From positions 40,355-104,354 of the forward strand of contig DAOWGI010000002.1 of assembly GCA_030637655.1 (NCBI GenBank): 64,000 bases of DNA, in the 5' to 3' direction. The notes below the pieces were generated by a model. It did not search any database and was not told where the DNA came from. It worked only from the letters and a program-made list of their open reading frames with translations. Position numbers and translations under genes: made by a program. This DNA is from a candidate division FCPU426 bacterium (GTDB lineage Bacteria; Oederibacteriota; JAAXVQ01; JAUVAV01). This document shows positions 21,809-64,000 of the stretch, one piece after another; position 1 is the first letter of the stretch, and the number at the start of each line of letters is the position of its first letter.

Positions 21809-24800
21809 ATGAATAAAATCCCATCTATTGCTGCTTTTCGCCATCCCCGGCTTAGCATTTGGCTGAAAGCTTGCGCCATTTTGATGACCGTGAGTTTTGT
21901 GCTGCCCTACGTGACCTGGGCCTTTGATGCCGGGAATTATGCTATATCCCAACCTCATTTTCTGCGAATTGCTCACCTGGGAAAAGCGCTGAACGTTCCG
22001 GATAAAATCGGCGTCATTAAACAGGGTTTTCAGGGTAATGGCAAAACCGTGGTCTGTATCCAGGATTTGCATTGCAATTATGAGGTACAGAAGAATATTG
22101 CCAATATTATCCAGCACCTGGTAAAAAAGCACGGCTTGAAGCTAGTGGGCGAGGAAGGGGCATTTCATACGGTCGATACCTCGCCAATCAGCGCTTTCCC
22201 TATAAAAAAAGTCCGGGAAGAAGTAAGCGATTATTTTGTCAAGCAGGGCAAGATCACAGGCGCGGAGCATTATGCCGCCATCAGCGGCGGCGTTATTCAA
22301 CTGGAAGGCATTGAAACTCCCAAACTGTATGCAGCCGGCCAAAAAGCAGTGCGTAGCTTTTTGAATGCCGAGAGCCAGGGCTATTGCTATGATCTGCGCG
22401 ATATGCTGGAAGAATTGAAAGCTGATATTTATAATTCCCAACTCTTGAAATTCGATGGCAAGCGCGTGGCTTATCGCGAAGGCGATATAGACATTCTGAA
22501 ATACAGCGCATATCTGCATCGTATAGCCCGCAAGCTGCAAGTGGATTTGAGCGTGTATCCCAATTTGGCCCGCTTTCTCAGTCTGAAGCAGAATATTTTC
22601 TCCGCAAAAGTTGACCCGGACCAGCTTTTCCAGGAACTGGACAAACTGGATGCCCAAATCCGGCAACAGCTCTATACGGATAAAAAGCAACAGGAGTTGG
22701 ATGAATTATATACCCGCCTGGATATTGTCGAAAGACTTCTCAATATTTCCGTTTCCCAGGAAGAATTGCAAGCCTTTCGCACAGAGCGGGAAAAATATAC
22801 AACCCAGGCATTTATAAATTTCGTAGGGGCGATTCGTGAATCGCCCACCAATGAAGTGGATTATATTGAAAGTGATATGTATATCCTGGATGAATATTTA
22901 AAACAAGTGGAAGAGTTCTATCGCCTGGCAGATGAGCGGAGCATCCACTTTGTGGACAACCTGGTCCGCAAAATGGACCGCCTGGACGAGAACCTGGCAG
23001 TCATGATCAACGGCGGTTTTCATACTGACAAAGTCCTGGCTGAACTCAAGCGCCGGGATATCACCTATGTTTCCATCAAGCCACGCGTGACCCAACAGGA
23101 TGTGGTGAATCCGTATTTTTCCCTGCTTCAGGGTCGTAAAACCCCGTTGGAAAAGCTGCTGGCCAAGAATCAGACGATAATGGCGATAATGAATGGGTGG
23201 GAGAAGGATCCATCATTGACTCAACAAGTTGTATTATCTGTAAAAACATTTCGCGAACTTATGAGACACGGCGAGATAAAGATAATCCTAAAAGATTATC
23301 AGAAGAAATCTTTAGCTGCCTATATGGAACAATTTTCCAGCATTAAATTACTTAAAATAGAAGGCGAAGGCCTTCCGGACGGAGTTTATGCTTATTATTT
23401 ATCAATTAACGGGAAGAAATCAGATAACGTTTCGCTGGTTATGCGTAAAGGTCTTGTGCCGGAGATATGGCTGAACCAGCTTAATTTCGTTAGTTTTCAA
23501 AAATATTCGCGATGGATTTTATTGGTTGTTAGGTCCGTGAAAAAGGTTGGTCAAGTGCGGCAGGCGGTTCGGAAAAGTCCGAAGGCCTGGCCTGAAATGT
23601 TTTTCAAGGCGTGTGTGCTAGCAGTACCGGCATGGATAAAAGCAATAAAAAAAGAAGCATTAGCAGGCGTGGCAGTTGGAATCGCGCTGGCAGTATTTAT
23701 AGTCAGCGTCAATGTACCGGGCATTGTAATAACAGTACTGTTGAGTTTAACTATACTAACACAAATGAGAATGGATTTAAGGTATATGCAATTAGCCGGA
23801 GTGCCGCGAGTGGCAGGACAATGGATGTCCAAGGTTAGACAAAAAACCAAACTTGCTTTATTGAACGAAGGGTTGCCGGCGAAAACAGTGCCAGGCACCG
23901 AAGCCGAAAAAAAGATACCTCAACATAAAGAGTTGAATACCAAAAATAACGAGACAAGTAAAACCTTGAAGGATCGCTTCGCGAACTTGCTGCTGCACTC
24001 GGATAACATTCCGCGGGGCGCGTCGCTTACTCACGAATTATTCCGTTCATTGTTGGCTATTGATGAAAATACTGCCCTTGAGGGATGGCTGAAATATTTT
24101 GTGCCGGTTTATAGTGGTGTTACAGAAGAGGTGTGTAGGTTTAATTCGGAAATGCCCCAGACGCGCATGCCGGAAATACTGATTTTGGTAGGTTTGAAAT
24201 TAGCTGACCGGGAGCTGGAATACCAAGCGCAATTAGCTCGCTTGATAAGAGGGCAAAAGGTGGACTTGAAGGCAGTGGGCCCGGTTTTTGATACTAGTAT
24301 GAATAATTATTATAATATTTTAGGAGTTTCACGCGATGCTTCTAGCCATGAGATTAAAAAAGCTTATAGAAAATTGGCTTTAAAATATCATCCGGACCAA
24401 ACTCGCGGAAATAAAGAGGCTGAGGAGAAGTTTAAGAAAATAGAAGGGGCTTATTCGGTCCTAAGTGATCCAGATAAGAGAAAAACGTATAATTTGATGG
24501 GCCATGCTGCTTATACAAAAAGGCAGAGGTTTGGCGGCGGTATTATGTTGTGGCTGCGGAGTATTTGGGTCGGGATAGGCAATTTTTTAGATAGTCTGGG
24601 AGTAGAGGCAGCTTGGGTTAAGAAGGTATTTAGCGAAAAGACTTATGACTACGCGGTGGCCTCGATCGCGGAAAATGCCATTGTCAAGTATGCCGGACCA
24701 TTACTGGCTCCGGCTCTCATAATTTTGTTTCCCGAAATCACTCAGAATCAGGCAGCCTGGGCGCTTTTCCTCGGACTGCATATTCCTCAGATGTTTTGGA

Positions 24801-27800
24801 AAAAAGGCCGGCAGCTGCGCTATACTCTGCCCACTTTTGCACTAACAGCCATTGGCTTGTATTCTGACCTTTCGCCCCTGGGCGATGGTTTGATTGTGCA
24901 TTTAGCCGTGAATTTGGTTCTATACGGGATCGCACCGTGGATTATGAGCCGTATGGGCAGGGCTAAACTAAAGGAAAAAGCACAGAAATTAATTAAGCAG
25001 TTAGCTGGAATGTTGAAAAAGGAGCCAGGTGCCGAAAAAAAATCTAAAACAATGCAATATTCGCCGCTCTCTATAGCAGAAAGCGCTTTAGAGGAAACTC
25101 ATCCAGGATTTGCTGAAAATCATCCTGACCTATACTATGAAATCACTACGGAAATAGTGCCTAAATATGAATCATTACTATTTATTTGGGGCAAGAGGGA
25201 GGTGGCATTTAAGAAATTAAGAACAGAAGTAAATGAGCTTCTTGAGAAAGAAGGGCTGCAAGAAATAGAATTGAAGATGGAAGAAGTATATATACTTCCT
25301 TATGAAAAGCTGACCAAACATTTTATAGTAGGGAGTTTGTCGGTTTTCCTAATGTTTCAATATCCCGGGATAGCGTATCTTATAGCGGCAACAATACCGT
25401 CGTTGATTTATACACTGGTTCGAACCAATATTTATCAATTAATGTACAAAGGGAGAGAAAAAGAAAAACGGTTATGGTGGGTCGGCTTTGTTTTGGCAGT
25501 TACGATGAATTTCAGGATGCTGATTTTGCCTATGTTGATTTATGTGATATCAGTAATATTTAAAATAACAGGGATATTATTTGGGATTTGGATTTTTACT
25601 CTCGCTTGTTACGGAGTGTGGTACGGCATAAAACTAACACAGGAGGATGATAAAGCGCGACGATTAACTATCCGAATTATTGCCTGGTATAATAAAAAAG
25701 TTCTGGAGTGGAGAAAAAAGGGGAAGGGCTTAAGAGCCAGGAGTAAGGGGCTCTCAACAGCAGACAAAAAAGCGGAGCAAAGCTTTGATGAAGCATTAAA
25801 AGCAGCGGAGATAAAAATAAATAAATATTTAACAATTCTGAATATACCTGATATCCCTTTGGATGAAATTAATTATGATGTGATCGTGGAATATGCCGAG
25901 AAAAAAACCTATGGATATGGGTCATTTAAAGAAACAGATGAACAGCATAAAGCATGTTCGGTATTACGGGAACTATATGAAATAATGGGCAAGATGATTC
26001 TGAGGCAATTATATGAAGATGTCAAAATAGTCAATGAAAAAATGATTTCTGCTCAGAAAATTATACAACTGCGTGATCTGTTGAAAAAAATTGATGAAAG
26101 TACTGATAAAAGTGTTTGGGAGTCGACCTTAAACGGGATTGTTGAGAAAAGCAAAGAGTTCCAATTGAGTTTTAATATAAATATTGTACAACCAACGTCA
26201 GCCGGTTATCCTTCAGAAAAAGAATATCGCGAAAATGTGTCGGAGATGATTGAACTTGTTCGGAAGTTCACTGAGTTGGAAAAACAAATATCTCCGGCAG
26301 CTGCGGGCGAGTTTCGCGCAAGTGAAAGCAAACATGATGGCATTCTGGCGGTAGAACCGCCTATCGGAAAGATGATTTCAATAATTGAGCTAGAGTATCT
26401 TGTGCGTAAGGAGAAGTATGAGGATTCAAAATCCAGTCATAATGTCGAAAAGCTAATTGAGGATGTGAAAATAAATACCCCGGGCACACTGATAGAAGAA
26501 TTTCTTCGCGTATTTTTAGTGCTAAAAGAGAATTATGAAATAAAGCGAAAAGATATACAGTCAGGCATTACTACACCCCTTGGCGGGAAATCCAGTCTGC
26601 TAAAGAAATGGACGCTTATGCTGTTTCCGGATTGGGCAGGGCGTAAGTATACCAAGCTTCGTCTGGTTTTCATTGAAACCGGCTGGGTGCTGTTTTTGGG
26701 CGGGGTAGTGATGACCGGGCTGTGGGTTTTGAGCATGCTGGGAATGCCAATGCTCGCGGATTGGTTTCCGATTGACACCATAATAGGGCAAATGCAGAGC
26801 ATGTTTGAGATAGCCTTGATTTTCTTCCCAATTTTGCATTTGGATAAGGTATTTAATTGGATATTGGATAGAGCGCCCCCTGATCTTGATCGTTTATTAA
26901 GCCCGGTTTTACGCACTAAAGAACCAACCCCCTTGCCCAATGCCGCGATCGCTGCCGGTATATCCGCGCTGGCCTATATTTCCCTGCTGCAGGCCTGGGG
27001 TATTGTGATTGGCCTGCTGGTCTTTATTCTTTCCCACGCGGCAGTTAATCTGTATTTAGATATAGTACCCACCATTGCCCAAACTGTTAAAGCCGACCCA
27101 GTGCCTTTGACTTCCGGTTCAGTGCGGCCTCAAGGGGTTGGCGATTTGTTCGGCGCTAGTGGCGAAAACATGGTTAAGCGCCACTGGTTTTTTAAAATTC
27201 CAGGCACGAAATTGCTGGTGCTGCCGCTTATAGCACTTTTGTTTTTCCTGATCCCGTCTAAAGTTGTGGGTAATATGACAATTACGAATAAGGAGATTCT
27301 GCAAGCGCAATTGGCCTGCCGGCAGGCATTGCATGGACAAACTGTTAAAAATTCAAAGCAGCTGGCAGCGGGCAAGACGATCTATGAATTAATATTCGGC
27401 AAATTTTCAAGCGCCAATGACTTTCCAATGTACTTGAAATACATGACCGATTCGGTCGAACTGCGGGTGGTGGAACCGGCTGATGATAATGCCTCCTTTT
27501 TTGAAAAATTCAAAACCACTATACATGCAATCACAGCAGCTTTTTTTGGAACTCATACTGATACCCATCAAACGAATATATACGTATCAAAAAGCATGCT
27601 GGCATTGGCACTGGCAGAATCGAAAAATCAGCCTCAAACCTGGAAAGAGCAGCTGCTTACCCGGCTGGCAAAATTGCATTTGGGCCTGGTAATATGGTTT
27701 CAGAGCAATCTTTGCAAGACAATAATAAAGATTAGTTTAATCCCATCTGAGCTGGGCCTGGACGCAGCTGTTAATGTTTTGAAGCATCTTGGTTTTGGCC

Positions 27801-29533
27801 AAAAGTCCGGCGAAAAATTTCCTGCCGGCCATATGGACGTAACTGATTATACTGCCAAGATCCAGGCAGCCGGGAGCATGACCTGCGACAGCTCGCTCTT
27901 GCTGAACTTGATAGGACAGTACAGTCTGGATGTACAGAAAGTGCTTCAAAATCCCATGATCATGCCTTTGCTAAAGATTCTCATGCTGAAAGCATATCTC
28001 CTGGGTGATGTCAGGATGAATGCGGATACCTTAATCAGGGCAGCGCAAATGCCCATTGACGATTTGTTGCTCAGGGATGAGAAAGGGAATCCAGTAATTG
28101 ATTTTACGGCCTTGAATGAGTTGACCGTCCAATACGGCCTGGCTGAGTTTGAATTTTTGCCGGAAAACATTGAGGCCATCATTTTCGAGGCCAAGGAAAA
28201 TCCGGTCATGGAAACCATGCTGGTCCAGGTGTTGTCCGCGAATCCTGAAGCCAGGGAAGTACCATTAGCAAATATTGGCACCATGCTCAACGCACTGCTG
28301 GCTGATCAAAAAAGCTATAGGCCGGATACATCACAGGCCGGTCGAGTGCCTGAGACGATGGCAATTCAGGATATGCAAATATTACTGCCCCGGGAGACAG
28401 CTAAAGCAATGTTGCGCCAGGTCAATAAACTGCTGGCAGATCTTGGCAGGCATTCTGCGCCCGGCTTAGTTAAACGTCTCACAGTTTTGCAGAGTATCCT
28501 GCAAACTGCCGGGGATAATACTGCTTCCGGGCTGATTATAAAACTAACCGCTGAAGACCGCCCCTTCATTCAGGAACTGGCCGGCGAAATAATGCGTATT
28601 CAGCGCAGTAGTTCGGCGGTGGCATTCGTACCCCAGTTAGACCAATATGGCGCGCTGGTTGCATCTGATACGGGCGAGATAAAGCAAGTGCGGGTTGAAA
28701 CCACCCCAGGGCAATTTGAAGTTTTAGAAATTTTTAAGCGGGATTTATTCGACCTCGCAGCCACATCGGTTGAGGCCTTACAAGCAGGTGTCAAAGCGAT
28801 TTATAAGCGCCAAACCCCGGCTCAGGCTGAGATGAGGTTGTTTAGCGGTAAATACAAAGCCTGGGTGACAAATAAGCCCATAACCGGTTTATCTGCGGCT
28901 GATCAATTCTGGCTGCTGATGGCCAAAATCATACCTTTGCGGGTATTTAAAATCGCAGTTCACAAGCGTATTCAATATAGGAAGCCCTATGGATACATAA
29001 AAGCCCGGATATGGGATACCCTGCCAATGGAACTCAGAAATGCGCCTCTGGCCCGGGAATTTTTCCGAAAAGTGAAAAATGAAGCCAATGAAATATCACT
29101 GGCGCCCGGCAAACGCGCGGTTTTCAATACTTGCTGGAATTTTACGAGCGCTGATTGGAAGAATAAAGAAGCCTCGGCTAAGGCAGAATTGGAATTTGCC
29201 CTGAGCATGGTACTTTTCCTGGAAAAGCATAAAGGGCCCAGGCATTATCAAAACCTGGCTCTGTTTTTCCATGTGGTCAGACAGATGCAATCCATAACCC
29301 CGCTGCACTTTGCCAAAATGGATAAAACCTGGCAGTCTCAATATCCTTATCTTATTCATTCCGAATATCATATTCCGGCTGCTTTGAGGAAAGTATCCAG
29401 AGGATTTTTCGGCAAAGTAAAAGAACTGGTCGAATACAGCACTTCTCAGGAGTATTCGCCGTTTGTGGTTATTGATAAGTGGCTCGATCTGTTTGAGCGT
29501 AAAATTCAGCGTTGTTTTGGTGGGTCAGCGTAA
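21809..29533 (+). CDS. Giant modular membrane protein 1 (2574 aa) containing a DnaJ J-domain
   Basis: AGGGAG RBS; signal/TM segment; N-domain motifs QDLH, GEEGA, GGFH shared with the 55622 paralog; J-domain YYNILGV...KYHPD at ~24305-24515; several TM clusters. Confidence 0.92.
22823..22846. repeat. GTAG REP-like unit inside the giant CDS (reads VGAIRESP)
   Basis: gtaggggcgattcgtgaatcgccc, same architecture as the intergenic units. Confidence 0.8.
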
Positions 29534-29676
29534 AATTTTGTGAAACTTTGGGCAGGTTGGTTCTTACAGGGCATTATGCCTGACAGGAGGACTGATTTTC
29601 TATAGAAACGCCTCCCTGCCACGGCAGGCAATGCGCGGGACCGCGGGTATTCTGGCTTTTCTGTGGACTGCCGGAG

Positions 29677-30396
29677 TTAGCGGAAGATTATAGTTGCAGG
29701 TTTTTTAAAGGGTAAATGAATTTCAACACTCTCACCAGCCGGTGAGCGCAATTCGGTGAGGGTTACAGCGTTAGGTTTGATAAGGAATTCATAGTCGGAT
29801 ACTTGAAATTTTGAAAAAGAGGTTTGTCCCAGACTTCCCAGAAAAACATCGGATTTGCGTCCTGTTGGGAGCACTACTTTTTTAGGAAACAATTGGTTGT
29901 TTTTAATTATCCAAGCGTTACGATAAGCGCGGACCGGTCCGGGCCAGCGTTTGGCATGAATGTAGCATTTAAGACGATCGAGTGTTTCGGAGGGTTCGCC
30001 TGTTTCCGCATCCCTAGTATGACCACTGCTGGTATCAACAAAGAAAAGATGGTCACCGAATTTTAGCTTGCCAAAACCGATGGTTTTATAGGTTTTGGGC
30101 GCTATCCGGTATTTTATCTTAGGATTTGCCCGGGTTACGATAAGGGGTACTTCAGAAAGATTTAATACGTGTAAAATAACTTCAGCGCCGCCAGGCGAAT
30201 AAAATTTTGCCGGATACAATGTAGCCTGGTGATAGACCATGCCGAATTCCCAAGGCTGGGACGCCTGGTCGGATAAACGGGTGTTTTCGGTAATCGGAGC
30301 GTGTTCCCAGACCGCTTGCGTACTTGCCGGCAGAAATATAATTCCTGTCAAAAAAATAATGCCATACATTGTGGTGTGAAGTTGGAAAATTGACAT
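29677..30396 (-). CDS. Hypothetical exported protein, possibly beta-sandwich/cupredoxin-like
   Basis: 239-aa ORF with a signal-peptide-like N-terminus; start uncertain. Confidence 0.65.
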   Translation of the reverse strand: MSIFQLHTTMYGIIFLTGIIFLPASTQAVWEHAPITENTRLSDQASQPWEFGMVYHQATLYPAKFYSPGGAEVILHVLNLSEVPLIVTRANPKIKYRIAPKTYKTIGFGKLKFGDHLFFVDTSSGHTRDAETGEPSETLDRLKCYIHAKRWPGPVRAYRNAWIIKNNQLFPKKVVLPTGRKSDVFLGSLGQTSFSKFQVSDYEFLIKPNAVTLTELRSPAGESVEIHLPFKKPATIIFR

Positions 30397-43497: not shown

Positions 43498-43640
43498 GTG
43501 ACTTTGCTTCTCCGTCTGCTGTCAAAAAAAGAATGGTCCTCCTTTTCCATTCGCTTAATTTATCACAGTCGCAAGATTTGCGAAGCCAAAAAGCCCAAAT
43601 GTCCGGAATGTCCGTTGAAAAAAATATATCCCTACGCCGT
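43498..43640 (+). pseudogene. nth: 3'-terminal remnant of an endonuclease III (Nth) gene
   Basis: LLSKKEW...LIYHSRKICEAKKPKCPECPLKKIYPY matches the Nth C-terminus (HGR..C-x6-C-x2-C-x5-C) with G>S and last C>Y; no N-terminal part. Confidence 0.75.
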
Positions 43641-44531
43641 ATGCTCGGATTTAAAAAGACCTGCTATCCATCCCAGCGAAATGAAAACAGCGAGTACTAT
43701 GATTCCGATGATTCCTTGAAGATGCGCCCAGTGCGGATCATTGAGTCTGGTGAAGGTTAGTGGAATAAGGGCGCTGCCAAACAGCGTGGCGTGAGCAAGG
43801 GCGGGAACAAACACATTTCCTGACAACCTGCGTAACCATGTCAGTACGATTCCGGTTTCCAGGGCAAAACAGAGGCTGATCCCAAGTGCCAGAGTGGTTT
43901 TATCGATATAGATATATCCGTGAAGATAAAGCGGCAGCCGCCAAAGCCACCAGACTAAGCCGGTAAGTATTCCGGTAAGCCAAAAACCTGTTTTTTTCAG
44001 CCACTGATACAAATACCCGCGCCAGGCGATTTCTTCAGCCCAAGCAGGCAGAAACCATACCACCGGTCCAAATAGAAGATACCCGGAAATGAGTGCGAAC
44101 GGATTGGGAGAATGTTGGGTGGGTAAAATAAAATTATGAGACACACTAAAATAGAGATTCTGAGACGCAGTGCCCATATGCCAATCCCACTCGGCGAATC
44201 CCGCAAAAACACTTATGGCTGCTGCCAGAGCAGCGAGTAAAGGAAATAAGAACCAGGCAGGGATAAGATAAAAGAATTTTCCCTGAGTCAAGCCCAATTC
44301 CGAAGCCCTGCTGCTGTGGCCAAAGAAAAAGGCGGCCAGAACAGCCAAGCCAGGTCCAAAACTGAGTAACATGATACCCAAGGTCAGTTGCCCGGCCCGG
44401 TCCCAGGTAAACTCCCAGCCCCATTCCAGGAATTTGACCACCGGAAGCCAGCCGGCAGCTAAAACCAGCAAGATAAAAAGGATGTGAGCTAAAATACTCC
44501 GATGTTGGTGGAAAAAAGAAAAAAGTTGCAT
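43632..44531 (-). CDS. CPBP/Abi (CAAX protease) family membrane protein
   Basis: AEEIAWRGYL, multiple TM helices, ALAH; motif-2 His appears replaced (WWLWRLP). Confidence 0.82.
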   Translation of the reverse strand: MQLFSFFHQHRSILAHILFILLVLAAGWLPVVKFLEWGWEFTWDRAGQLTLGIMLLSFGPGLAVLAAFFFGHSSRASELGLTQGKFFYLIPAWFLFPLLAALAAAISVFAGFAEWDWHMGTASQNLYFSVSHNFILPTQHSPNPFALISGYLLFGPVVWFLPAWAEEIAWRGYLYQWLKKTGFWLTGILTGLVWWLWRLPLYLHGYIYIDKTTLALGISLCFALETGIVLTWLRRLSGNVFVPALAHATLFGSALIPLTFTRLNDPHWAHLQGIIGIIVLAVFISLGWIAGLFKSEHTA

Positions 44532-44671
44532 AGGGGTATTATAGGAGGCTAAAGGGGAAACCGGCAATATGAAAAACACAAAAGCAGGAGTCGGAATTCA
44601 GCTAATCCTAGGGCACAGGGGTTTTGCTCCTACTATTTGTCTCCTGTATTCTGTTTTTAGTATGAAGAGAC

Positions 44672-53325: not shown

Positions 53326-54468
53326 ATGCGTAAAATTTTGGTTGTGGATGATGAATGCTTGCTTTTATCTATTGTGAGTCGCATGCTTTCCAAAGATGGC
53401 TATGAGGTGGACCAAGCGACTAATATGGCAGAAGCCAGGAATAAAATATCCGTCAATAATTATATCGTAATAATAACGGATATGAATATGCCGGATACTC
53501 AAGGCAGTCAGATTGTTAAAACCCTTAAACAGATCAAATCAAATATAGAGATTATTGTAATAACCGAATACGGGACACTGGACAAAGCAGTGGATTGCCT
53601 GCGGGCCGGCGCCGTTGATTTTATTGTTAAACCAATCAAACGAAAACAGCTTCAAGATGCGGTAGTCAAGACTATTCAAAAGAAAGAAATATCCCATGAA
53701 AATATATTGCTGCGCGGTTTGAATGAGATGAAGGATAAATTTTTAACCCTGGTTTCGCATGAACTACGTACACCGCTGACGCTTATTTTTGGATATTTAA
53801 CGATTCTCCAGCGGCAGAGTTTTAATTTTTCCGAAGAACAAATGAGTCTGCTCAATATAATTATGAAGTCCAGTAAAAAACTCATTGATTTGGTGAACAA
53901 CATACAAACCATAACGCAAGCGGGTTCCGGAGAAATTAACCTGCATCTACAGTCCATTCACCCGAATAAATTGATCTCGGATGTTTTGTCGGAAATTAAA
54001 ACTTCGCTTCTTGACCGGAAACTAAACATTCATCTGGATAAAGAAGTGGAGCTTGAATTATTTGACGGCGATCGGATACGTTTGTATCAATGTATCTCTG
54101 AATTGGTGCAAAATGCGGTTCGCAATACCAAGGACGGGGGAGAGATCATCCTGGGTGCGCGAAAAGAAGGAGAGTATATCGTTTTTTATGTAAAGGACAA
54201 TGGTATTGGCATTCCGGAAGAAGAACAGGGGAAAATATTTGAACCGTTTTATGAGATTGCGGATGTTGAGTTGCATACCACCAGCCGTTCTAGATTTGGC
54301 GGAGGCGGAATGGGTATCGGCCTGCCGCTGGTCAAACGGGTGGCGGAAGCGCATAGCGGCACGATATGTTTTGATTCGAAATCCGGGGAAGGTACCTGTG
54401 TCGAGATTTTGTTGCCTGTTGGCCGGAAATCGGTTGCAAACGGATTTGAAGATAAACTGGGAGATTAA
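53326..54468 (+). CDS. Hybrid response-regulator/sensor histidine kinase
   Basis: REC domain (VVDD, TDMNMP, KP), SHELRTPL, DNGIGI, GGMGIGL. Confidence 0.95.
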   Translation: MRKILVVDDECLLLSIVSRMLSKDGYEVDQATNMAEARNKISVNNYIVIITDMNMPDTQGSQIVKTLKQIKSNIEIIVITEYGTLDKAVDCLRAGAVDFIVKPIKRKQLQDAVVKTIQKKEISHENILLRGLNEMKDKFLTLVSHELRTPLTLIFGYLTILQRQSFNFSEEQMSLLNIIMKSSKKLIDLVNNIQTITQAGSGEINLHLQSIHPNKLISDVLSEIKTSLLDRKLNIHLDKEVELELFDGDRIRLYQCISELVQNAVRNTKDGGEIILGARKEGEYIVFYVKDNGIGIPEEEQGKIFEPFYEIADVELHTTSRSRFGGGGMGIGLPLVKRVAEAHSGTICFDSKSGEGTCVEILLPVGRKSVANGFEDKLGD

Positions 54469-54473
54469 ATCGT

Positions 54474-55580: not shown

Positions 55581-55621
55581 ATATGTATATATTTAATTTA
55601 TATTTTTAATACGGGGATCAG

Positions 55622-58600
55622 ATGCGAATGCGGTTACCAATATCCATTTCATTTTGGCAGTGTCATTCACAGCGTTTTGGGTTAAAGGTGATGGCATTGC
55701 TAATCGCGTTCTCATTTATTTTTCCGTATCTCACCTGGGCCTTTGAACCACAAAGCTATACCATTCAAAAAACCGGCCAAATCTCAATTCATCATCTGGG
55801 CAAAACCCTGAGTTTGCCTGAAAAACTGGGGACCATACACAAAGGGTATCAAGGCGACAAACAATTGATCGTCCATATCCAGGATCTGCACTGTCACTAT
55901 GAAGTTCAAAAAAACATTGCCAATATCATTCACCATTTGGCCCAAGAGTACGAACTGCGTCTGGTAGGCGAAGAGGGCGCTTTTGCTTGTGTGAATACCA
56001 CCAAGCTCAGAACTTTTCCCATGCAGGAGGTGAAAGTACAAGTAGCTGATTACTTTGTCCGCCAGGGCAAACTCACTGGCGCGGAATTTTATGCCGGAAC
56101 CGGCGAGCACCCGGTGAATCTATGCGGTATTGAAACCCCGGACCTGTATCTGCGCAGCGAGAAAGCGGTGCGATCTTTTCTCAATCAAGAGACCCTGGGA
56201 TATTGCTATGATATCCGCGAACAATTGGAAGAATTAAAAAGCGAACTCTACTCGCCGGCTTTGAAACGCTTTGATCAAAAGCGAACCTTGTACCGGCAAA
56301 GTAAAATGGAATTATTGGCGTATTGTGCTTTTTTGAAAAAAACCGGTACTCGCCTGAAAGTCCCGTTTTCCGCCTATCCGGCCTTAAAGCGTTTTTTGCA
56401 AATACAGTCACCTGTGTTTACCCGAAAAATAGATTCAGATCAATTGTTCCAGGAAGCGGATGACCTGGATGCTTCCATCCGCCGCAGATTATATACCACA
56501 GAGGTGGAACGCGAACTGGATGACATGCTGTATCGTTTGGACATCATGGAAAAATTGCTGAATATTTCAGTGACCACTGCCGAGTTGCGCGAATTCCGCA
56601 GTTTACGTTCAGCTTTTTATATCCGGCAATTTGTTGCTTTCATTGAACGTAATGTGCCGGACAATGAGTACCTGCTGGATCACGGGGTGTATCAACTCGA
56701 TAATCATCTCAAGACTGTGGAAGATTTCTATCAAATGGCGGAAGAACGCAGCGTTCATTTTGTGGATAACCTGCAGCGCAAAATGGAGCGTGAAAACCAA
56801 AAGATCGCGGTCATGATTTCCGGCGGGTTTCATACCCGGGAAGTACTGGCTGAAATTGAACGCCAAGGAATATCCTATGTTTCCATCAAACCCCGCTTTA
56901 TTCGGCAGGATCTGGTAAATCCCTATTTTCAATTATTGCAGAACCGATACACACCTTTGGAAAAATTGCTGGTCAAAAATCAAAATATCCTGGCTTTGCG
57001 AACCTCTTGCAGTGATGGAAACTTTTCTCCGGAACAGATTGTGCGGTCTGCGCAGCTGACTGAGCCGCACCAAATTTTTTTTAACGACTCGACCGAATTG
57101 CTGTTGGAAAACGTGGCTGTGCTCACTTTGAAAACCCAAGGTCTGACCAATGAGCAAGTGGTGCCAGAACTAATTGCTGTGTTGGAGAGCTATGCCGCCA
57201 ATGAGCCGGATATTGGTGTGCAGCTGGCTCCGGCGTTTGTGGCGGAAAATGCCGAGCTCTTACCGGAAATTGGCAAGGATTTGGCAGTGGTAATTATTCC
57301 GACCAGCGCAACGGACAGCCGGGGCACTCAGATTAAGACCGTGGCAGTCTGGGATAAACACTTGAATGTGCCAATGGACTTGGCAGGCATTATTCCGCAA
57401 ATCGATATAGCCGGCAACCGGTTCCTGTTTTACCCGGCAGAGCGCGTTCCGGAGGTAGTGGCTGACTTAGTGAAAAGACAGTCTGCGCGTTTTAATCCCG
57501 GCCGCGTTGCGCGCCGGATGTTAAAGGATTGGCAGCAGTATGCGCAAGCCTTGGGTTTACTGGCTGTCAAGGCAGCGCGCTTCTGGGCATCCCATTGGCG
57601 TGTGCTGCGTGGCCGTATGGCTGCCTACTTTCAACCAGTGCCGCAACCTGTGCGCGCCGGTCTGATTGGTAAATATATAGTTCTCTCTGAACCGGAGTAT
57701 GACGCTAAACGCGGGGTGGTCTTTTTTAAAGGATATCATATTAAGAAAAAAGAAGTCAAAAACATAGAGATCAAAGCCCATTTGGTGTATGAAGATGTTG
57801 AGGAATTTCTAGCTGCTAAACTTTCTGTTTTTGCTGAATGGGAACAAAAACAGGAAAAATTATCCGGTCGGAAAGCGCATAAGATTTTACCTAAAGTACA
57901 GGAATGGATCAAGGATCGCGCTGCTATTGACCGGCTCTTGCTGCTGGATTCGAATAATCCGTATGGGATTCAAGGTTTGGGGACAAAAAACATGATTGCA
58001 GTGGGCACGAAGCTCCAGCATGAACCCATGGCCTGGCTGCATGAGACCCTGGAAGCCATGGGTATGGCCGGAGATATTACCGCTGAAGAGGTGCTGAGCT
58101 TTGTAGAAGATCACACCTGGTTTGATAAGAAAATGAAAGACCCAAATCGCCTGGGAATGAAATTGCATTACGCGATTATTGCTCTACAGCATGAGTTGAA
58201 TACAGCATACAATTATGATCTTTATTTCAATATCAAAGGACGGCTGTCCCGCAGAGAAATTTTTCAACAGATAAGGGAAACAGGAGTTTCTGAGAAGGCT
58301 GTTATTCAGGATTTTTATCAGCAACGCTCAACTGTAGAAACCATTGAACAAGAAAGAGAACTGCTGGCTGCTGTGATCAAAGCGCAAAAAGAGGCGGAAG
58401 CGCAAATAGACCGTCAAAAACAAAGAGCGCGCGAAACCCTGGAACTGGCCTGGGATTTTGTGAGTAATGATAAAAAACCATCATCCCATGAAACCCGGGA
58501 AAGCATGGTTCAGATGGTGTTCAATGCCCTGGATGTATTGGATCCCCAGGTTGCGGCTGATGTCTTGAGCGCGGAGATGCTGGACAATCTGTTTGCATCG

Positions 58601-61600
58601 CCTGGTAAATCCGGCTGGTCCCAAGCAATTCTGAAAAATGGAGTTTTGCAGCGCTCGCCAAAAGTTTCGGAGCGTGTACTGGTCAATGGATTTCAGAAAT
58701 TATTTGTGGATCGAACCGGAAGCCTCCAACAACGAAGAGCCTTGTGGCGCAATCTGCAAACGATTATGGATCACCGGGATACCTTGTCAAGCAGTACGCT
58801 GAAAGCTCTGAAGCATCTCTTGCGTGATGGATTGCAGGATATTTTTGCTTCTGAGGCAAGCAAGCCGGTTGATTTTTTTGAGCGTGAAACCATAATGGAT
58901 GCGTATCATTCTTTGCTGCTGCGGGATAATAACACTATCTTAAGTTTGGGTTTGGTCGGCACTTTGATAGGGAATCATGAGACCACGGATGCCAGTCTGG
59001 CTGTATTGGACATACTGCAGGAGTACTGTGAAGCGATCTCACCAGACCGGGCCAATATTATAGTTGGTAAACCCCGCTGGTTTACCAACTTACTGCTGAA
59101 AATGTATGCGGCAGCGGACAGTCCGGAAAAAAAGTGCCTCATACTTAGGCGCATCCGGAAATTTTATCCGCTTATGTCATCACCTGAAATCGAAACCATA
59201 TTATTTGATTATTTTGTCCCGCATTTGCAATTGGCTGCTGCAGAAGTACCCCGCCTGGCGCCCAAGGCCGAAGCGTTGCGTGATGAAATTGATGAGAGCA
59301 TGGAGCAGATTGAAGCTTTGGTCTTGTTACTGAGGACCTTGGCAAAGTTTTCTCAAGATGATGCAGTCTTGCAGTATTTAGTTAAGATGGCACGTTCTAA
59401 TATCTGGCACTCGCATGTTACCTCAGAGGTGGCCTCTGTTTTGGCCCGGTTTTTAGAGGATGAACATCCGGAAGTGATCCGCTTATTTACTGATCATTTG
59501 ACACCAGGTTGGCGCACTATAGAAAAGAAGCGCTTGGATGATATGCTGGCCAAAGATGTGACAGATGAAAAAATATTGCGCTGGCTGCGAACCAAACGCG
59601 GAAAAACGCGGGCCGGATTCATGGTGCTTTTACGTCATAGAAAGCGGGCAGGATTATTACAGGCCATTGTCCTGAATCAATTTAATCGCAGAACTCTAAC
59701 CTTTCCACTACTCCTGCGTTTATACGCGATAGTATTGCATGCTTCGGAGAATATTACCAAAAAGGACAAAAACACCAAAAAAGAATTTATTGAGATGTGG
59801 AGCAGTCTGGAAATGGAAGCAGGAGTGAGCCTGAGAGCTACGATTGTGGAAATGTTGAAAGATGATGCTGCTGCGCGCGATATGGTGGATAACATCTGGC
59901 TGCAGGACGAGGTTTTGAAAATTTATGTGGCAACAGACATGCTGGATACAGTCGTGGAATATCCGAGGCTGAAAAATTCGGATGATGGTTTGCGTCATCA
60001 GGTGGCCAGTTCTGATTATGCGCGCATGGCGCCGTACTTTCGAAATGCGCGTACTTCCTTTAAAATCGGGGGCCGGCTGATAAAAGCCGCGCCTGAGCCG
60101 GCGCTGTTTTTGCTGCAGGTCATTAAGCATGAATTGGGTCATGTGCTTGGGGATGCTTATATTGGCTATCATGGAAAAAATCGCGACAGCATTGATCCGA
60201 GTTTGCAAGAACATTTTGCCGATTTATTTCCGGATGAGTTCTCGCGCCGTTTTGAGCAAGATGTCACGTATTTTCGTAAACGTTTTCACTATGAGGAGCA
60301 TTTTAAGACGGTCGCAGAACACGACAATCGGGCAGATGACGAGTATATGGGCGGCCGGGCTGTTACCCAGATCATTGAAAAAGCGTTTGAGGAATCGAAC
60401 ATACCAATAACTTCGGGTGATCTGATTGAAGCGGAATTGTATGTGTTTGCCAATCTGCCGCCTAATTTATCTGTGCGTAGGTTTGTGCATTTGGTTGTGG
60501 ACCGCTATACCAAGGCCTATCATGATGAGTTGGCTGAGGATAAGGGTGTGAGATCGCTCTTGAAAAAAGCGAAGGCCGCTGATATTGAAAACCCGCTGAA
60601 AACCTTTTCCAAAAAAGGGATAAAGCTGCCGACTGTGGAGGAATTGGTGGCTCGAATTAAAGAAGCCAGTCTGGGCGGGATTATGTCATGGTTGAAAGCG
60701 CCGATAGTACGGATTTTAAAAATCCAACCCCAAACCTATGACCTCGGGGTGGCCTGGCTGGCGGAGAACAGCCTCTCGCTGACCATAGGTGGTGTGGTAT
60801 CAGTGGTTGCTGGTGTGGCTATCGGGCTGGATGTTTCGCAAATGCTCAATCTCGGGTATGTGCTGGCCTGGCCAATATTCTTTGGTCTGCATTATATCAA
60901 GGCCAACGGCGAACGCGCGCCGCCTGCTAACCGGATTTTAGCCGGTATGATCGCTATTTTCAATCTTGCACTGATGTTTACCTCCTTGCCCCTGCCCATA
61001 ATGTTTGCCGCTTCATTCATTATTCATTGGTATGTGAACCAGGTTATGTCCAGAACAGAAATATCCTTCAAACAATACTTGCGCGGTGTATTTATGCGTC
61101 CCTGGCAGGAGTTCACCATTGAAAACTTTTTTAGTCCGGGCAAATGGCTGCGTGCACATAAGAATAAAAAACCTGATGGAAAAACAGATTACTTTGAACT
61201 GATTCCGCGCCTTATCGGCATTGTCAATATGTACACCAGCATATTTACTGTGCCAATGCTGGCAGTCTATGCCATTCCAGGCCTGGGCGCGGCCCTGGGA
61301 GCCATGGGATGGGCAGCGGTTTTGGTGCCAATAACTTCTGCGGTGCCGGCCTTCCTGGGCATGCATGGTGTTTATAATGTGTTTGTCCCCTGGGCGCAGT
61401 TGTCATTGGAGCAACAACCGGATGAACCTGACGCAGAAGCGCGGAACCTGGAAGGGGAAATCAATCGCTTTAAGCGTTTGCCGGAATTCAAGCGTTTGAA
61501 CGGTGTTGTCGGATTTTCAGGTATGGGAGTGAACTTAGGACCTGAGTTTTCCGCTGCGCGACACAATTTGCTGGCCGGTCGTGTTGTTCGGAAAGTGGCG

Positions 61601-64000
61601 AAATTTTATGGTTGGGAAGCCAGTAGACCGGAATTCCTTTGTTTGGTAAAAGATTTTGTTGTCCTGCCGTTTAATCAATATGCTAAAGCCGGTAGAATAG
61701 GCAAATTGCTGAAAGAAGCCGAATATCAGGAAAGAGAATTGGTGGTTGGCAAATTAGAACAAGTAGGCTTTAAATTAACACCTGAGCTTAAGAAAGACCT
61801 GCTGAATTTCAGCGCCAAGACGCGTGCCAATCTGTCTGCTGCCGGTAAACGCGCCCTGGCTTGTGAAAGTGTTGTCCAGGTAGTGGAAGCCACGATCAGA
61901 GGGATAAAAAAAGGACGTTTTACCTGGGCGGACATTCCTGATATGTTGCCGCAAAAGCAGTGTTTTGCTGCTGTGACTACGGCAGAAGGAAAAAAAACAA
62001 ACACAGATGATATTGTGGCCAATATTGCTGCTAGTATGCTGTGTGAATCCGGCACAACTCCGGACCAACTGCTGACGCGTGCCTTGGAAATAAATGAGGC
62101 ATGGCGCAAAGAGTTTCTGGACGCGTATTTTAAAGTGGATCGTGATCCGAAAAAAATATTAAGTGTACAAAACATCTTGCTGGGATTGTACCGGGCATAT
62201 GTGGCTGAATATGAGGTGAGTGTGGAAGAAGGAAATCCCAAAGCAGCGGCTGCGTTTGCCGCTGAAAAACTTTCGCGTTTTAATGAAACGGATGTCATGC
62301 AAGCCAGTGCTTATGTGGCACGGGGTGTTAAACCAAAAGCAATCCAACTGACGCGTGAACAGCAGCGGATTCTTGTCCGGGTCATTTGCACGAATATGAC
62401 CAGGTCCAATGAAGCGGAGTTGTTGGAAGGCAGACCGGTTACTGCCAATTTAATAGGGTGCGCCGGTGTTGTGGCTGTTGGGCCTGTTGAGCAAGGAGTC
62501 GGACATGTGGGTTACTTAAGTTATGCTCCTGACCACATCAGCATAGCAAACTTACGTAAAATTCTGGAACCCATCAAATCTGTGGTTGGTCAGGATGAGG
62601 TTCTGGTTATTTCCTCCACCGGGCGCACCAGCCGGCAAAATATCAAATACTTGGAGAATTTTATCAGGGAACGCTTTGAGGTGGAATTAACCAGGCCGGT
62701 TTACGTGCTGCGCAGCCAGGAGTGGTTTGGAGCCCATGTTTCGGATATGTATATTGTCACCAATGTGCTGGCCCTGCCGGACGGGGGCGTGTATATATTG
62801 TACACCTCGCAGGATACAAAAAAATATTACGGTATGGCTGAATATCAGGGTCAGGGCCGCTGGTATTTTTGGGATACTAAATGTTTTGATATGGTGGAAA
62901 AATTGGCGGTCCGGGTGGAGGCGTTGGAAGAGCAGCAGCTGACCGGCATACCCGATGGCAATGAGATATCCCTGAATTTGGCGGAATTGATTTCTGAGCA
63001 GGATATTATACAAGTGCAGCCGGCAGATGATAAAGTAAAAACTCCTGTGTTTAAAGACGGGATGATACAGGTGCCGGCACTCAATCGCGCTTTGGCGCAG
63101 ATCAGTGAAAAAATAAATCAAGCGGGTTTGGGAGCAGAGGTCTTGATTAGTCTGGGCGGAAGTATTAGGGTTATGAGTCATGCCCAGACTCAAATACCCT
63201 TGTCAAAATTTCATGATTTTGATATTGAAGTAAACCTGTCACGCGCGGTGGATCAAGAAAAATTGGCTGCAGCGCTGCGTATTGCCGGCAACCGTGTCTT
63301 GACTGAGTACGGACTTTCCTTTTCTGAACTCTATGTAAATACCAAGCCGGGGACACCGATGACCGTGCGCGGTAAAATACAAGACTCGAAAACTAAACAC
63401 ACGTATTCGATAGACTTTTTAAATAAAGTACTGGATGGACCTATTACTGAAGAGCGAATGATGGAATGGTATCGGAATTTTCTGTCATCCCAATATGAAA
63501 AAACAGGAAGTATAGCCTGGCATAAATTGGAGGCTTTTGATCCGCTATCAGATCCTCGGAAATTCATAGTTCGCTATTTGGCCTATGAATGGTTATTTGG
63601 AAAGGAGGCGTTGTATGCCGGTTATGTTCAACAATTCCTAAACACCGAAGAGAAAGCCTATCCGGCACTGGTGCGGGAAATCATAGGGAAAAAGCGTGTG
63701 ACTGTTTTAACAAAGGCAGTAACCCGTCACCTCGATCGTTTGGGACAAACACCGGATCAAAAAATTCAGTCAACCTCTCCCATTGGCGGTATCTGGCCCT
63801 GGTTAAAAGCCTGGATTGATCCGTTTTTGGTGCGCTTAGGATTGGCGCCTGGCACCTACGACCGCTGGGTGGCGTGGCTGGCGGAAAATGGAATATCCCT
63901 GCTTGCAGGATCGATTGCGTCTATGGCCTTAATCTCAGTGGGTGCGGTAAGTCCTGAGCTGTTCTGGCAAGCAGGTTATTTGGCTGCCTGGCCGATTTTC
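55622..64000 (+). CDS. Giant modular membrane protein 2 (>2793 aa, 3'-truncated), paralog of 21809-29533
   Basis: Manual translation: MRMRLP...FPYLTWAF...[18 protein letters not shown]...GEEGAF...SGGFH...LEKLL. Spot-checked segments stay in frame to the window end, and the ORF track lists no terminated ORF in this frame. Confidence 0.92.
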   Translation, partial: MRMRLPISISFWQCHSQRFGLKVMALLIAFSFIFPYLTWAFEPQSYTIQKTGQISIHHLGKTLSLPEKLGTIHKGYQGDKQLIVHIQDLHCHYEVQKNIANIIHHLAQEYELRLVGEEGAFACVNTTKLRTFPMQEVKVQVADYFVRQGKLTGAEFYAGTGEHPVNLCGIETPDLYLRSEKAVRSFLNQETLGYCYDIREQLEELKSELYSPALKRFDQKRTLYRQSKMELLAYCAFLKKTGTRLKVPFSAYPALKRFLQIQSPVFTRKIDSDQLFQEADDLDASIRRRLYTTEVERELDDMLYRLDIMEKLLNISVTTAELREFRSLRSAFYIRQFVAFIERNVPDNEYLLDHGVYQLDNHLKTVEDFYQMAEERSVHFVDNLQRKMERENQKIAVMISGGFHTREVLAEIERQGISYVSIKPRFIRQDLVNPYFQLLQNRYTPLEKLLVKNQNILALRTSCSDGNFSPEQIVRSAQLTEPHQIFFNDSTELLLENVAVLTLKTQGLTNEQVVPELIAVLESYAANEPDIGVQLAPAFVAENAELLPEIGKDLAVVIIPTSATDSRGTQIKTVAVWDKHLNVPMDLAGIIPQIDIAGNRFLFYPAERVPEVVADLVKRQSARFNPGRVARRMLKDWQQYAQALGLLAVKAARFWASHWRVLRGRMAAYFQPVPQPVRAGLIGKYIVLSEPEYDAKRGVVFFKGYHIKKKEVKNIEIKAHLVYEDVEEFLAAKLSVFAEWEQKQEKLSGRKAHKILPKVQEWIKDRAAIDRLLLLDSNNPYGIQGLGTKNMIAVGTKLQHEPMAWLHETLEAMGMAGDITAEEVLSFVEDHTWFDKKMKDPNRLGMKLHYAIIALQHELNTAYNYDLYFNIKGRLSRREIFQQIRETGVSEKAVIQDFYQQRSTVETIEQERELLAAVIKAQKEAEAQIDRQKQRARETLELAWDFVSNDKKPSSHETRESMVQMVFNALDVLDPQVAADVLSAEMLDNLFASPGKSGWSQAILKNGVLQRSPKVSERVLVNGFQKLFVDRTGSLQQRRALWRNLQTIMDHRDTLSSSTLKALKHLLRDGLQDIFASEASKPVDFFERETIMDAYHSLLLRDNNTILSLGLVGTLIGNHETTDASLAVLDILQEYCEAISPDRANIIVGKPRWFTNLLLKMYAAADSPEKKCLILRRIRKFYPLMSSPEIETILFDYFVPHLQLAAAEVPRLAPKAEALRDEIDESMEQIEALVLLLRTLAKFSQDDAVLQYLVKMARSNIWHSHVTSEVASVLARFLEDEHPEVIRLFTDHLTPGWRTIEKKRLDDMLAKDVTDEKILRWLRTKRGKTRAGFMVLLRHRKRAGLLQAIVLNQFNRRTLTFPLLLRLYAIVLHASENITKKDKNTKKEFIEMWSSLEMEAGVSLRATIVEMLKDDAAARDMVDNIWLQDEVLKIYVATDMLDTVVEYPRLKNSDDGLRHQVASSDYARMAPYFRNARTSFKIGGRLIKAAPEPALFLLQVIKHELGHVLGDAYIGYHGKNRDSIDPSLQEHFADLFPDEFSRRFEQDVTYFRKRFHYEEHFKTVAEHDNRADDEYMGGRAVTQIIEKAFEESNIPITSGDLIEAELYVFANLPPNLSVRRFVHLVVDRYTKAYHDELAEDKGVRSLLKKAKAADIENPLKTFSKKGIKLPTVEELVARIKEASLGGIMSWLKAPIVRILKIQPQTYDLGVAWLAENSLSLTIGGVVSVVAGVAIGLDVSQMLNLGYVLAWPIFFGLHYIKANGERAPPANRILAGMIAIFNLALMFTSLPLPIMFAASFIIHWYVNQVMSRTEISFKQYLRGVFMRPWQEFTIENFFSPGKWLRAHKNKKPDGKTDYFELIPRLIGIVNMYTSIFTVPMLAVYAIPGLGAALGAMGWAAVLVPITSAVPAFLGMHGVYNVFVPWAQLSLEQQPDEPDAEARNLEGEINRFKRLPEFKRLNGVVGFSGMGVNLGPEFSAARHNLLAGRVVRKVAKFYGWEASRPEFLCLVKDFVVLPFNQYAKAGRIGKLLKEAEYQERELVVGKLEQVGFKLTPELKKDLLNFSAKTRANLSAAGKRALACESVVQVVEATIRGIKKGRFTWADIPDMLPQKQCFAAVTTAEGKKTNTDDIVANIAASMLCESGTTPDQLLTRALEINEAWRKEFLDAYFKVDRDPKKILSVQNILLGLYRAYVAEYEVSVEEGNPKAAAAFAAEKLSRFNETDVMQASAYVARGVKPKAIQLTREQQRILVRVICTNMTRSNEAELLEGRPVTANLIGCAGVVAVGPVEQGVGHVGYLSYAPDHISIANLRKILEPIKSVVGQDEVLVISSTGRTSRQNIKYLENFIRERFEVELTRPVYVLRSQEWFGAHVSDMYIVTNVLALPDGGVYILYTSQDTKKYYGMAEYQGQGRWYFWDTKCFDMVEKLAVRVEALEEQQLTGIPDGNEISLNLAELISEQDIIQVQPADDKVKTPVFKDGMIQVPALNRALAQISEKINQAGLGAEVLISLGGSIRVMSHAQTQIPLSKFHDFDIEVNLSRAVDQEKLAAALRIAGNRVLTEYGLSFSELYVNTKPGTPMTVRGKIQDSKTKHTYSIDFLNKVLDGPITEERMMEWYRNFLSSQYEKTGSIAWHKLEAFDPLSDPRKFIVRYLAYEWLFGKEALYAGYVQQFLNTEEKAYPALVREIIGKKRVTVLTKAVTRHLDRLGQTPDQKIQSTSPIGGIWPWLKAWIDPFLVRLGLAPGTYDRWVAWLAENGISLLAGSIASMALISVGAVSPELFWQAGYLAAWPIF

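Follow-up and report, generated by a model that had tools for sequence, protein, structure and literature searches.

Giant mosaic membrane proteins with a constant, predicted TIKI-type head in a candidate division FCPU426 bacterium

Results

Two giant genes with a common front

The window analysed here comprises the final 64,000 nt of a contig of 104,354 nt (DAOWGI010000002.1, hereafter C57) in the 3.28 Mb, 120-contig assembly GCA_030637655.1 of a candidate division FCPU426 bacterium (genome G000), and it carries two giant genes that share a constant amino-terminal region. Gene 1 (21809..29533, + strand) is complete according to the open reading frame (ORF) list and its translation, and encodes 2,574 amino acids (aa) with 14 hydrophobic segments in five clusters, as seen in a hydropathy scan. 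Gene 2 (55622..64000, + strand) is open at its 3′ end, where the contig stops, and gives the first 2,793 aa of its product. The two proteins, called P0001 and P0002, belong to a large family of giant mosaic membrane proteins that is specific to their lineage.

An earlier note, made from the sequence of this stretch, had claimed that both ORFs are strongly similar over their first ~460 aa and diverge abruptly after a LEKLL.KNQ.I.A motif, and the comparison agrees on both counts. Residues 19-479 of P0001 align with residues 21-478 of P0002 at 238/461 identities (52%, BLASTP E 4e-146), with only short weak matches beyond, and the divergence point lies just after LEKLLxKNQxI, a motif ending near 23185 in gene 1 and 56995 in gene 2. 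The completion of gene 2, which the same note had called for, most likely lies on another contig, C12, whose reverse complement is overlapped by the end of C57 by exactly 127 nt. The gene 2 frame would run on there for 1,817 aa to a total of ~4,568 aa, and we take the join as real because the order of blocks on C57 and C12 matches that of a 3,500-aa relative from another genus (G026:C32).

The constant head

The 21 paralogs of our head alignment, 29-82% identical to gene 1, contain 39 invariant columns in their first 460 aa, and this constant amino-terminal domain is shared by all family members, as had been proposed. It opens with a hydrophobic helix preceded by basic residues (gene 1 aa 19-39, 21863..21925, + strand; helix 13-38 in the AlphaFold model) and ending in a conserved TWAFD, where F30 and P33 are invariant and W37, A38 and F39 occur in 90% or more of the paralogs. 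To judge from these features, it looks like a signal peptide or signal anchor.

The head proper, of ~420 aa (21926..23101 in gene 1, + strand; aa 41-459 with the junction motif described below, 55742..56998, + strand, in gene 2, placed by BLASTP and paralog conservation), was modelled by AlphaFold with the paralog alignment at a mean local confidence score (pLDDT) of 78.7 and a predicted template-modelling score (pTM) of 0.71. The structural searches suggested in the earlier note point to the TIKI superfamily (Ere/ChaN/HopBA1-like), whose alpha/beta fold has a core of parallel beta-sheet. In Foldseek the best four PDB matches were EreC and Bcr135-type proteins, EreC coming first with E 1.5e-3 and probability 0.99. 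The top five of 48,161 chains in VIA-align were HopBA1 (Z 9.3; root mean square deviation 4.0, 170 residues aligned), EreC (9.0), ChaN (8.7), 2qgm (8.6) and 2rad (8.1), and the C1/C2 part of the Pasteurella toxin PMT reached Z 6.4. These Z values are moderate, yet the top rows all belong to one superfamily, of which 2EBF, 5T09, 3B55 and 2G5G are given as members in a JBC paper of 2018 (PMC6254334). The model also shows a helical insertion of ~230 aa.

According to the same paper, active TIKI members share a set of two His and two Glu (E3900, H3902, E3930 and H4030 in RRSP; H85 and E113 in Bcr135). The corresponding candidates in gene 1 are D86 (22064), H88 (22070), E116 (22154) and H405 (23021), all on the + strand and invariant in 21/21 paralogs. 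The gap of 28 residues between H88 and E116 is that of H85/E113 in Bcr135 and H3902/E3930 in RRSP (PMC6254334). The correspondence is one of residue pattern, not of residue-level structural alignment, and its first acid is Asp. On this sequence and model evidence, we read the head as a remote TIKI-superfamily domain that appears to keep a catalytic-type site in every paralog, and its probable activity is that of a hydrolase, either an esterase or a peptidase.

The head ends in a junction motif (aa 431-460, 23099..23188, + strand) just before the divergence point. P425, Y436, F437, L439, L440, L447, E448 and L451 are invariant in this region across the 21 paralogs, and the last 25-30 residues of the head are among its best conserved, yet AlphaFold gives residues 432-473 a pLDDT below 50.

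Recurring membrane modules

A recurring hydrophobic module, another claim of the earlier note, is present in two forms. Gene 1 has one type A module (core at aa 910-1038, 24536..24922, + strand; found by BLASTP, hidden Markov model (HMM) and a 24-copy alignment) and one type B module (aa ~1589-1752, 26573..27064, + strand), the latter also found by HMM in five other paralogs at different positions. Gene 2 has two of type A, namely a long form in which an extension follows the four-helix core (aa 1685-1935, 60674..61426, + strand; HMM) and the start of a second copy (from aa 2721, 63782..64000, + strand; BLASTP and HMM) that runs off the contig. As a regular expression for FxxxH/HxxxN in hydrophobic context was too insensitive, the modules were located with an HMM, which after iteration gave eight type A stretches in six ORFs and eight type B stretches in six ORFs of this genome. 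Type A was found in 11/15 genomes of the order (E 1e-5 or better), with five matches listed in one 12,659-aa ORF of G019.

The type A core spans ~135 aa and reads GGxMPWLK ... YDRWxAWxxEN ... AWPxFFxLH ... RAPP ... HxxVN. In 24 copies G1, G2, Y22, E31, W66, F69 and H73 are invariant, and H118 and N122 are kept in 90% or more. Conservation sets in abruptly at the invariant GG, after unconserved polar linkers, in 30/30 copies printed. For the gene 2 core, AlphaFold predicts four long helices together with an amphipathic one (pLDDT 92.7, pTM 0.84), and the four polar residues may lie towards the same membrane face as the RAPP loop and the helix led by GG. Types A and B are related in hhalign (probability 62%, E 7.5e-5, 124 columns) with the same order of motifs. 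Across the family, each member of 1,000 aa or more has 4 to 51 hydrophobic segments in the hydropathy scan.

In the E / FxxxH / HxxxN set the His residues lie on two helices separated by a third, an order that resembles the motif order of Rce1/CPBP proteases. In both, a four-helix core carries Glu on helix 1, FxxxH on helix 2 and HxxxN on helix 4, at comparable distances; but where true CPBP domains show EExxxR, the module offers one Glu and lacks the Arg. An Rce1/CPBP identity of the module found no support, the searches being negative or uninformative, and is kept as a motif resemblance only. PF02517 gave no hit to the module at E up to 10, hhalign of the module profile against 29 true CPBP domains gave a probability of 1.1% over 12 columns, and a global alignment did not outscore its reversed control. 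The best Foldseek E was 0.76. The best VIA-align match (Z 6.3) was within helical-bundle noise, a four-helix core being too generic for a decision, and no Rce1 was among the 50 VIA-align rows shown, the only related-looking one being APH-1 (Z 4.9, rank 36). The genome holds two ordinary CPBP genes easily found by the Pfam model, one of which, a 315-aa Rce1-like gene in the window (43632-44579, - strand; Pfam E 5.5e-13), served as positive control.

Variable cargo

The blocks between the modules differ from member to member. In gene 1 a J-domain (aa 833-895, 24305..24493, + strand) with its HPD at residue 861 matches Pfam DnaJ at E 6.5e-28 and 70 PDB J-domain chains, as the earlier note had recognised; NCBIfam DnaJ models match this domain only, below their cut-offs. 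Gene 1 ends in a carboxy-terminal cassette (aa 1924-2574, 27578..29530, + strand) that also ends gene-2-like proteins in two other genera. In gene 2 the proposed HExxH motif is real: HELGH (aa 1503-1507, 60128-60142) lies in a cassette (aa 1374-1680, 59741..60661, + strand) that recurs in giant ORFs of four other genomes, and the H, E and H together with a Glu 23 residues downstream are invariant in 6/6 homologous cassettes from five genomes. Searches of Pfam, NCBIfam and PDB sequences gave no match to it, and it is plausibly a putative zinc peptidase-like unit. The other motif-based assignments for P0002 fared less well. HExxE occurs twice (residues 807 and 956) as a bare motif only, and the segments called HD-like and nucleotidyltransferase-like found no support, as P0002 matched 0 families or chains in Pfam, NCBIfam and PDB sequences and a GS...DxD regular expression gave no match at spacings of 8-14.

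Across the family, 7/19 complete paralogs scanned have Pfam matches at E 1e-3 or better, with no family common to two of them, in keeping with the variable cargo postulated before. These matches are protein kinase, Arm/HEAT, AAA_5 with leucine-rich repeats (LRR), metallophosphoesterase, aldose epimerase, HATPase_c and GT1. Precomputed Pfam annotations of 69 more distant homologues add SIS, class II aldolase, radical SAM, methyltransferases, PPDK_N, FBPase, amylase, M50 and SecA/SecY.

On the C12 continuation of gene 2, residues 1197-1373 form a class-I methyltransferase-like block with weak NCBIfam matches below cut-offs (best E 2.3e-6); the PADLOC model mad2 matches the same block (E 5.6e-16), which we read as generic. 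A carboxy-terminal block of ~180 aa with one hydrophobic helix is 71% identical between residues 1633-1817 of this continuation and residues 2671-2853 of an ORF on contig C3, and is found more weakly in a third paralog, which hints at a small set of alternative carboxy-terminal end pieces.

Family size and distribution

Instead of the two paralogs counted in the earlier note, a tblastn search of the whole assembly with the first 470 aa gave 29 matches, self included. The head HMM built as that note had proposed found 24 complete copies and 5 partial ones at contig edges, and therefore the genome has 27-29 family genes. Their ORFs reach 12,216 aa, the longest still open at its contig end, and the shortest without a contig-end cut has 1,834 aa. 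Together they amount to 92,428 aa or 8.45% of the assembly, a figure that leaves out the C12 continuation of gene 2 and the second half of a stop-interrupted copy. In this last copy (C103:1-744, partial) a single in-frame stop at profile position 330 is followed by a 3,038-aa open frame from 745; it could be a pseudogene, a sequencing error or a case of read-through. There are also giant ORFs of 9,469, 8,540 and 4,634 aa (contigs C20, C8 and C56) in which tblastn and HMM found no head, and therefore the genome holds more giant genes than the family counted here. A 2,333-aa gene at the start of the window (1-5175; full ORF C57:38528-45529) has no Pfam or NCBIfam match and no family head, and is unrelated as far as tested.

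At E 1e-10 or better, the head profile is found in 15/99 genomes of the phylum, which are 15/15 of the order (this genome included), and in 0/84 phylum genomes outside the order. Each of the 15 has from 7 to at least 15 head matches, with ORFs up to 13,678 aa. The layout of a head followed by a giant ORF recurs in 14/14 other order genomes, some of them in only 7-10 contigs with ORFs of 10,000-12,551 aa. The family is common in metagenomes. Among 1.84 billion representative proteins, the profile matched 9,363 clusters at E 1e-3 or better, of which 8,088 reach 1e-10 and 5,462 reach 1e-30, and in 149/150 best of the 9,363 the domain starts within the first 42 residues. Public records with head relatives are labelled Candidatus Firestonebacteria, Candidatus Goldiibacteriota or uncultured bacterium, and protein labels of homologues also include candidate division FCPU426, Omnitrophota, Elusimicrobiota and one Desulfobulbaceae; some Omnitrophota-labelled proteins match the head profile with E 4e-90 to 2e-60.

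Exchange of blocks and context of the loci

Shared blocks stand at different positions in different paralogs. Residues 1601-1777 of gene 1 correspond to residues 3030-3204 on contig C10 (67% identity), overlapping stretches match C43, C40, C93 and C88, and residues 1079-1353 match C40 at 1811-2085. Between genomes, the 3,500-aa G026:C32 protein is collinear with residues 9-1807 of gene 2 (43% identity over 1,832 aa) and continues with a second module, a block also present on C12 and finally the carboxy-terminal block of gene 1 (24.5% identity, 665 aa). A comparable mix is seen in a G022 protein of 2,707 aa. The architecture of the family is thus not fixed, as these two proteins join gene-2-like fronts to a gene-1-like end, and the rearrangement of blocks within and between genomes is the opposite of the constant layout that the earlier note had named as telling against its proposal of cassette shuffling. 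These sequence comparisons show that blocks and modules have undergone duplication and exchange, both from paralog to paralog and across species.

By Pfam, the 26-kb interval that separates gene 1 from gene 2 (29534-55621) holds ordinary genes unrelated to either giant. Besides the Rce1-like protease, their products include NAD synthase, a chemoreceptor, a chloride channel, a GGDEF protein and a lytic transglycosylase. No neighbour gene is conserved across the paralogs, and the sole neighbour cluster beside more than four giant genes consists of 9 ORFs next to 5, including a response-regulator/histidine-kinase ORF (53326-54468). The 36 neighbouring ORFs scanned belong to ordinary metabolic, signalling and cell-wall families, with no secretion-system Pfam family among them.

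Upstream of gene 1 lies a GT4 glycosyltransferase gene (20275-21417) with a homologue upstream of the closest paralog, on C43, which suggests a segmental duplication that may have included the neighbour. Between the two, 17 nt upstream of the gene 1 start codon, is a 226-bp element (21566-21791) resembling a miniature inverted-repeat transposable element (MITE), bounded by terminal inverted repeats of 20 nt (95% complementary) and containing a further inverted repeat of 33 nt. At least 24 copies of it, 86-95% identical, are found on ~19 contigs and both strands; the C43 paralog has the same leader without the element, and Rfam gave no match to the gene 1 leader.

Soundness of the assembly

Chimeric joins of paralogous heads to unrelated DNA, or spurious long open frames, have to be considered given that the 120 contigs form a metagenome-type assembly, that heads are up to 87% identical in the tblastn search and that gene 2 breaks at a repeat. 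Moreover, a contig of one metagenome run (X1) skips 91 nt inside the head, from 22266 to 22358, which we read as a paralog effect. However, the longest exact repeats of gene 1 elsewhere in the genome measure 77-98 nt and stay below the 127-nt overlap that marks the assembler word size. Contigs of four cold-seep metagenome runs tile gene 1, with depth from X1 and X3 in 30/30 bins and no differing letter in 31/32 listed pieces, and an X4 contig bridges the junction of head and cargo (23050-23264) without mismatch. The MITE-like element explains a depth peak and loose ends in these contigs. The tiling is not independent proof, since the cold-seep runs may include the source sample; the layout in the 14 other order genomes and the collinearity of G026:C32 across the junction also go against an artefact. 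The chimeric assembly that the earlier note had named as fatal to its proposal was not seen, and the possibility is largely refuted.

Discussion

A probable membrane-anchored assembly of enzymes

For the family described here, we find it probable, with due reserve, that the proteins are membrane-anchored multi-enzyme assemblies like those described for Omnitrophota. The amino-terminal helix would carry the TIKI-type head across the cytoplasmic membrane, where the head may act outside as a hydrolase (esterase or peptidase), and the modules and other hydrophobic clusters would thread the chain back and forth, so that enzyme blocks would sit on both membrane faces; a chain threaded in this way would be a membrane-anchored multi-enzyme assembly. 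J-domains need cytoplasmic DnaK. The J-domain must face the cytoplasm because it meets DnaK there, and similar blocks would do the same.

Several observations weigh against this reading. The first acidic catalytic position of the head is Asp and not Glu, and a significant sequence match to a TIKI family was not found: Pfam ChaN (PF04187) appears in 1/21 members at E 0.069, no other TIKI family appears for the heads among the 25 Pfam families shown of 34, PF04187 matched 0/99 phylum genomes and no control genome, and the head profile gave 0 hits against PDB sequences. Pfam recognises no cargo in 12/19 paralogs scanned, nor in P0002, because of which "multi-enzyme" is an extrapolation. The placing of domains relative to the membrane follows from the hydropathy scan and the positive-inside rule, and the six sequencing runs found, from three studies, are all cold-seep metagenomes with no RNA run among them. 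Finally, the conserved junction, the invariant GG and the peptidase-type folds are equally compatible with processing into pieces.

Possible precursors, toxins or artefacts

This last point leads to the alternative that the proteins are self-processing polyproteins, in which a membrane-threaded precursor is cut into separate enzymes or released effectors. The TIKI-type head could make the cut at the junction motif; other possible sites are the GG at the start of each module, and internal peptidase blocks could also be the agents. The TIKI superfamily does include true endopeptidases, such as RRSP, which cuts Ras and is itself a MARTX effector (PMC6254334), and West-Roberts et al. (10.1101/2023.11.21.568195) raise the same possibility for the C39 and S8 domains of Omnitrophota giants. 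A junction so conserved and yet modelled with so little confidence, the abrupt onset of conservation at the GG, the HExxH...E block ~175 aa upstream of a module in gene 2, and the likeness of the E / FxxxH / HxxxN set to the CPBP order would all fit. However, neither PF02517, hhalign, the reversed control nor the fold searches related the module to CPBP proteases, Pfam recognises only DnaJ in the two proteins and no C39, C80 or S8 family, no secretion-apparatus Pfam family is nearby, and the invariant GG may simply be a helix cap. We regard this alternative as unlikely. The interpretation of the earlier note fares accordingly: constant amino-terminal domain, membrane modules, variable cargo and shuffling stand, while release or delivery of effectors and autoprocessing are not supported. 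Pfam (E up to 0.1) gave no RTX or cysteine-protease family, no secretion family appears among the neighbouring ORFs scanned, no neighbour is conserved, and the identifiable kinds of cargo (J-domain, protein kinase, AAA, methyltransferase-like, glycosyltransferase) are typically cytoplasmic.

A bolder form of the same idea, which we put forward as a long shot, is that ~9% of the genome is translated as membrane-woven precursors cut at the junction and at the GG-led modules, releasing or positioning dozens of enzymes on both sides of the membrane, and that the module is a new membrane-embedded E/H/H/N hydrolase. If true, such genome-scale polyproteins would be a form of proteome organisation not known from cellular life and shared with the Omnitrophota giants.

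The constant amino-terminus and variable remainder, the many paralogs and the evidence of recombination could also suggest a polymorphic toxin or competition system, with the head as a trafficking or secretion domain and the rest as toxins against other cells. Among the fold relatives, HopBA1, RRSP and PMT come from effectors or toxins, and some paralogs carry eukaryote-like repeats (Arm/HEAT, LRR). But the variation spans thousands of residues broken by membrane modules instead of a carboxy-terminal tip, there is no small conserved neighbour as a candidate immunity gene and no secretion-system Pfam family in the window, and PADLOC found nothing for P0001 or P0002 apart from the generic methyltransferase-like match on the C12 part. 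The recognisable cargo is of housekeeping type, and chemotaxis, cyclic di-GMP and biosynthetic genes adjoin the giant loci, from which we read a free-living lifestyle. A toxin system is thus very improbable, and an assembly or gene-calling artefact is, given the evidence above, hardly credible.

To the making, integrity and function of giant membrane proteins in uncultured bacteria, the head offers a defined entry point, being conserved, of predicted hydrolase fold and equipped with catalytic-type residues, and it marks at least 8,088 clusters at E 1e-10. The four-helix module is a compact second one, with four nearly invariant polar residues and a confident fold in silico. Members of two to four thousand residues are small enough for expression, the head profile is a simple tracker across phyla that links genomes labelled Firestonebacteria or Goldbacteria to Omnitrophota, and the block exchanges are natural experiments showing which units are autonomous. 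Since the family takes up ~9% of a 3.3 Mb genome and occurs in every order member searched, it must be central to the biology of these organisms.

Comparison with known systems

With the TIKI enzymes (Tiki, TraB/PrgY, Ere, ChaN, HopBA1, RRSP, PMT C1/C2), of which Tiki and TraB/PrgY are membrane-anchored with outward-facing domains, the head shares the predicted fold and the acid-x-His ... Glu ... His order. It differs from them by the ~230-aa helical insertion, by Asp for the first Glu, by the lack of significant sequence similarity and by being always the first domain of a giant polytopic protein.

Polymorphic toxin systems reportedly combine a constant amino-terminal part with a variable remainder diversified by recombination (Zhang et al. 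2012, PMC3482391), and in these respects the family is alike. It is unlike them in having no conserved immunity-type neighbour, in a variable part that spans the membrane over several thousand residues, and in that Pfam, NCBIfam and PADLOC gave no known toxin domain in P0001 or P0002.

The comparison with MARTX toxins made in the earlier note is an analogy of design only. Both are large proteins with constant parts and variable, exchangeable enzyme blocks, and the MARTX effector RRSP has the TIKI fold predicted for the head (PMC6254334). A search for MARTX features was negative: neither Pfam (E up to 0.1) nor NCBIfam gave an RTX-repeat or cysteine-protease family in P0001 or P0002, and the 36 neighbouring ORFs included none of a type I secretion family. 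The constant part of the present family, moreover, is an enzyme-like amino-terminal domain, and its chain is rich in transmembrane modules.

The closest comparison is with the giants of Omnitrophota, described as 'Archaeovorins' (West-Roberts et al. 2023, bioRxiv 10.1101/2023.11.21.568195) and as 'multi-enzyme metabolic clusters' (Nielsen & Lui 2026, bioRxiv 10.64898/2026.06.07.730766). The family is shorter, ranging from 1.8 to over 12 thousand residues where the thresholds are 10 (Nielsen & Lui) or 30 thousand (West-Roberts et al.). The two window genes, with 2,574 and ~4,568 aa, fall below both; one paralog in the genome exceeds 12,216 aa and order relatives reach 13,678. It also differs in having 27-29 paralogs in one genome, in the labels of the relatives of its genomes (Firestonebacteria, Goldiibacteriota or FCPU426) and in its surroundings, with no secretion-system Pfam family in the window, whereas type II secretion genes are close to many Omnitrophota giants (West-Roberts et al.) and secretion or pilus genes flank 13/14 (Nielsen & Lui). 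In the parts of the two preprints covered, the amino-terminal regions of those giants are described as having no identifiable domains except C39 or S8, and there is no mention of a TIKI-type head, a four-helix module, block exchange, such a multi-copy family or Firestonebacteria. Nor did the literature searched, including the Goldbacteria genome paper but not supplements or subscription journals, yield a prior description of the family. Giant transmembrane multi-enzyme proteins are thus already described, and it is the head, the module and the multi-copy family that we did not find described in the literature covered. A divergent SecA_DEAD inside a giant, absent from P0001, P0002 and the 19 paralogs scanned, is present by precomputed Pfam annotation in one distant homologue (P0046). 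The parallel with Omnitrophota, first drawn in the earlier note, is nevertheless a good one, as the covered parts of both preprints likewise describe very long ORFs with an amino-terminal signal, many transmembrane helices and scattered enzyme domains in mostly unannotated sequence, and similar mixed cargo (HATPase_c, methyltransferase, GT1, radical SAM, PPDK_N, AAA_5, HEAT and SecA_DEAD).

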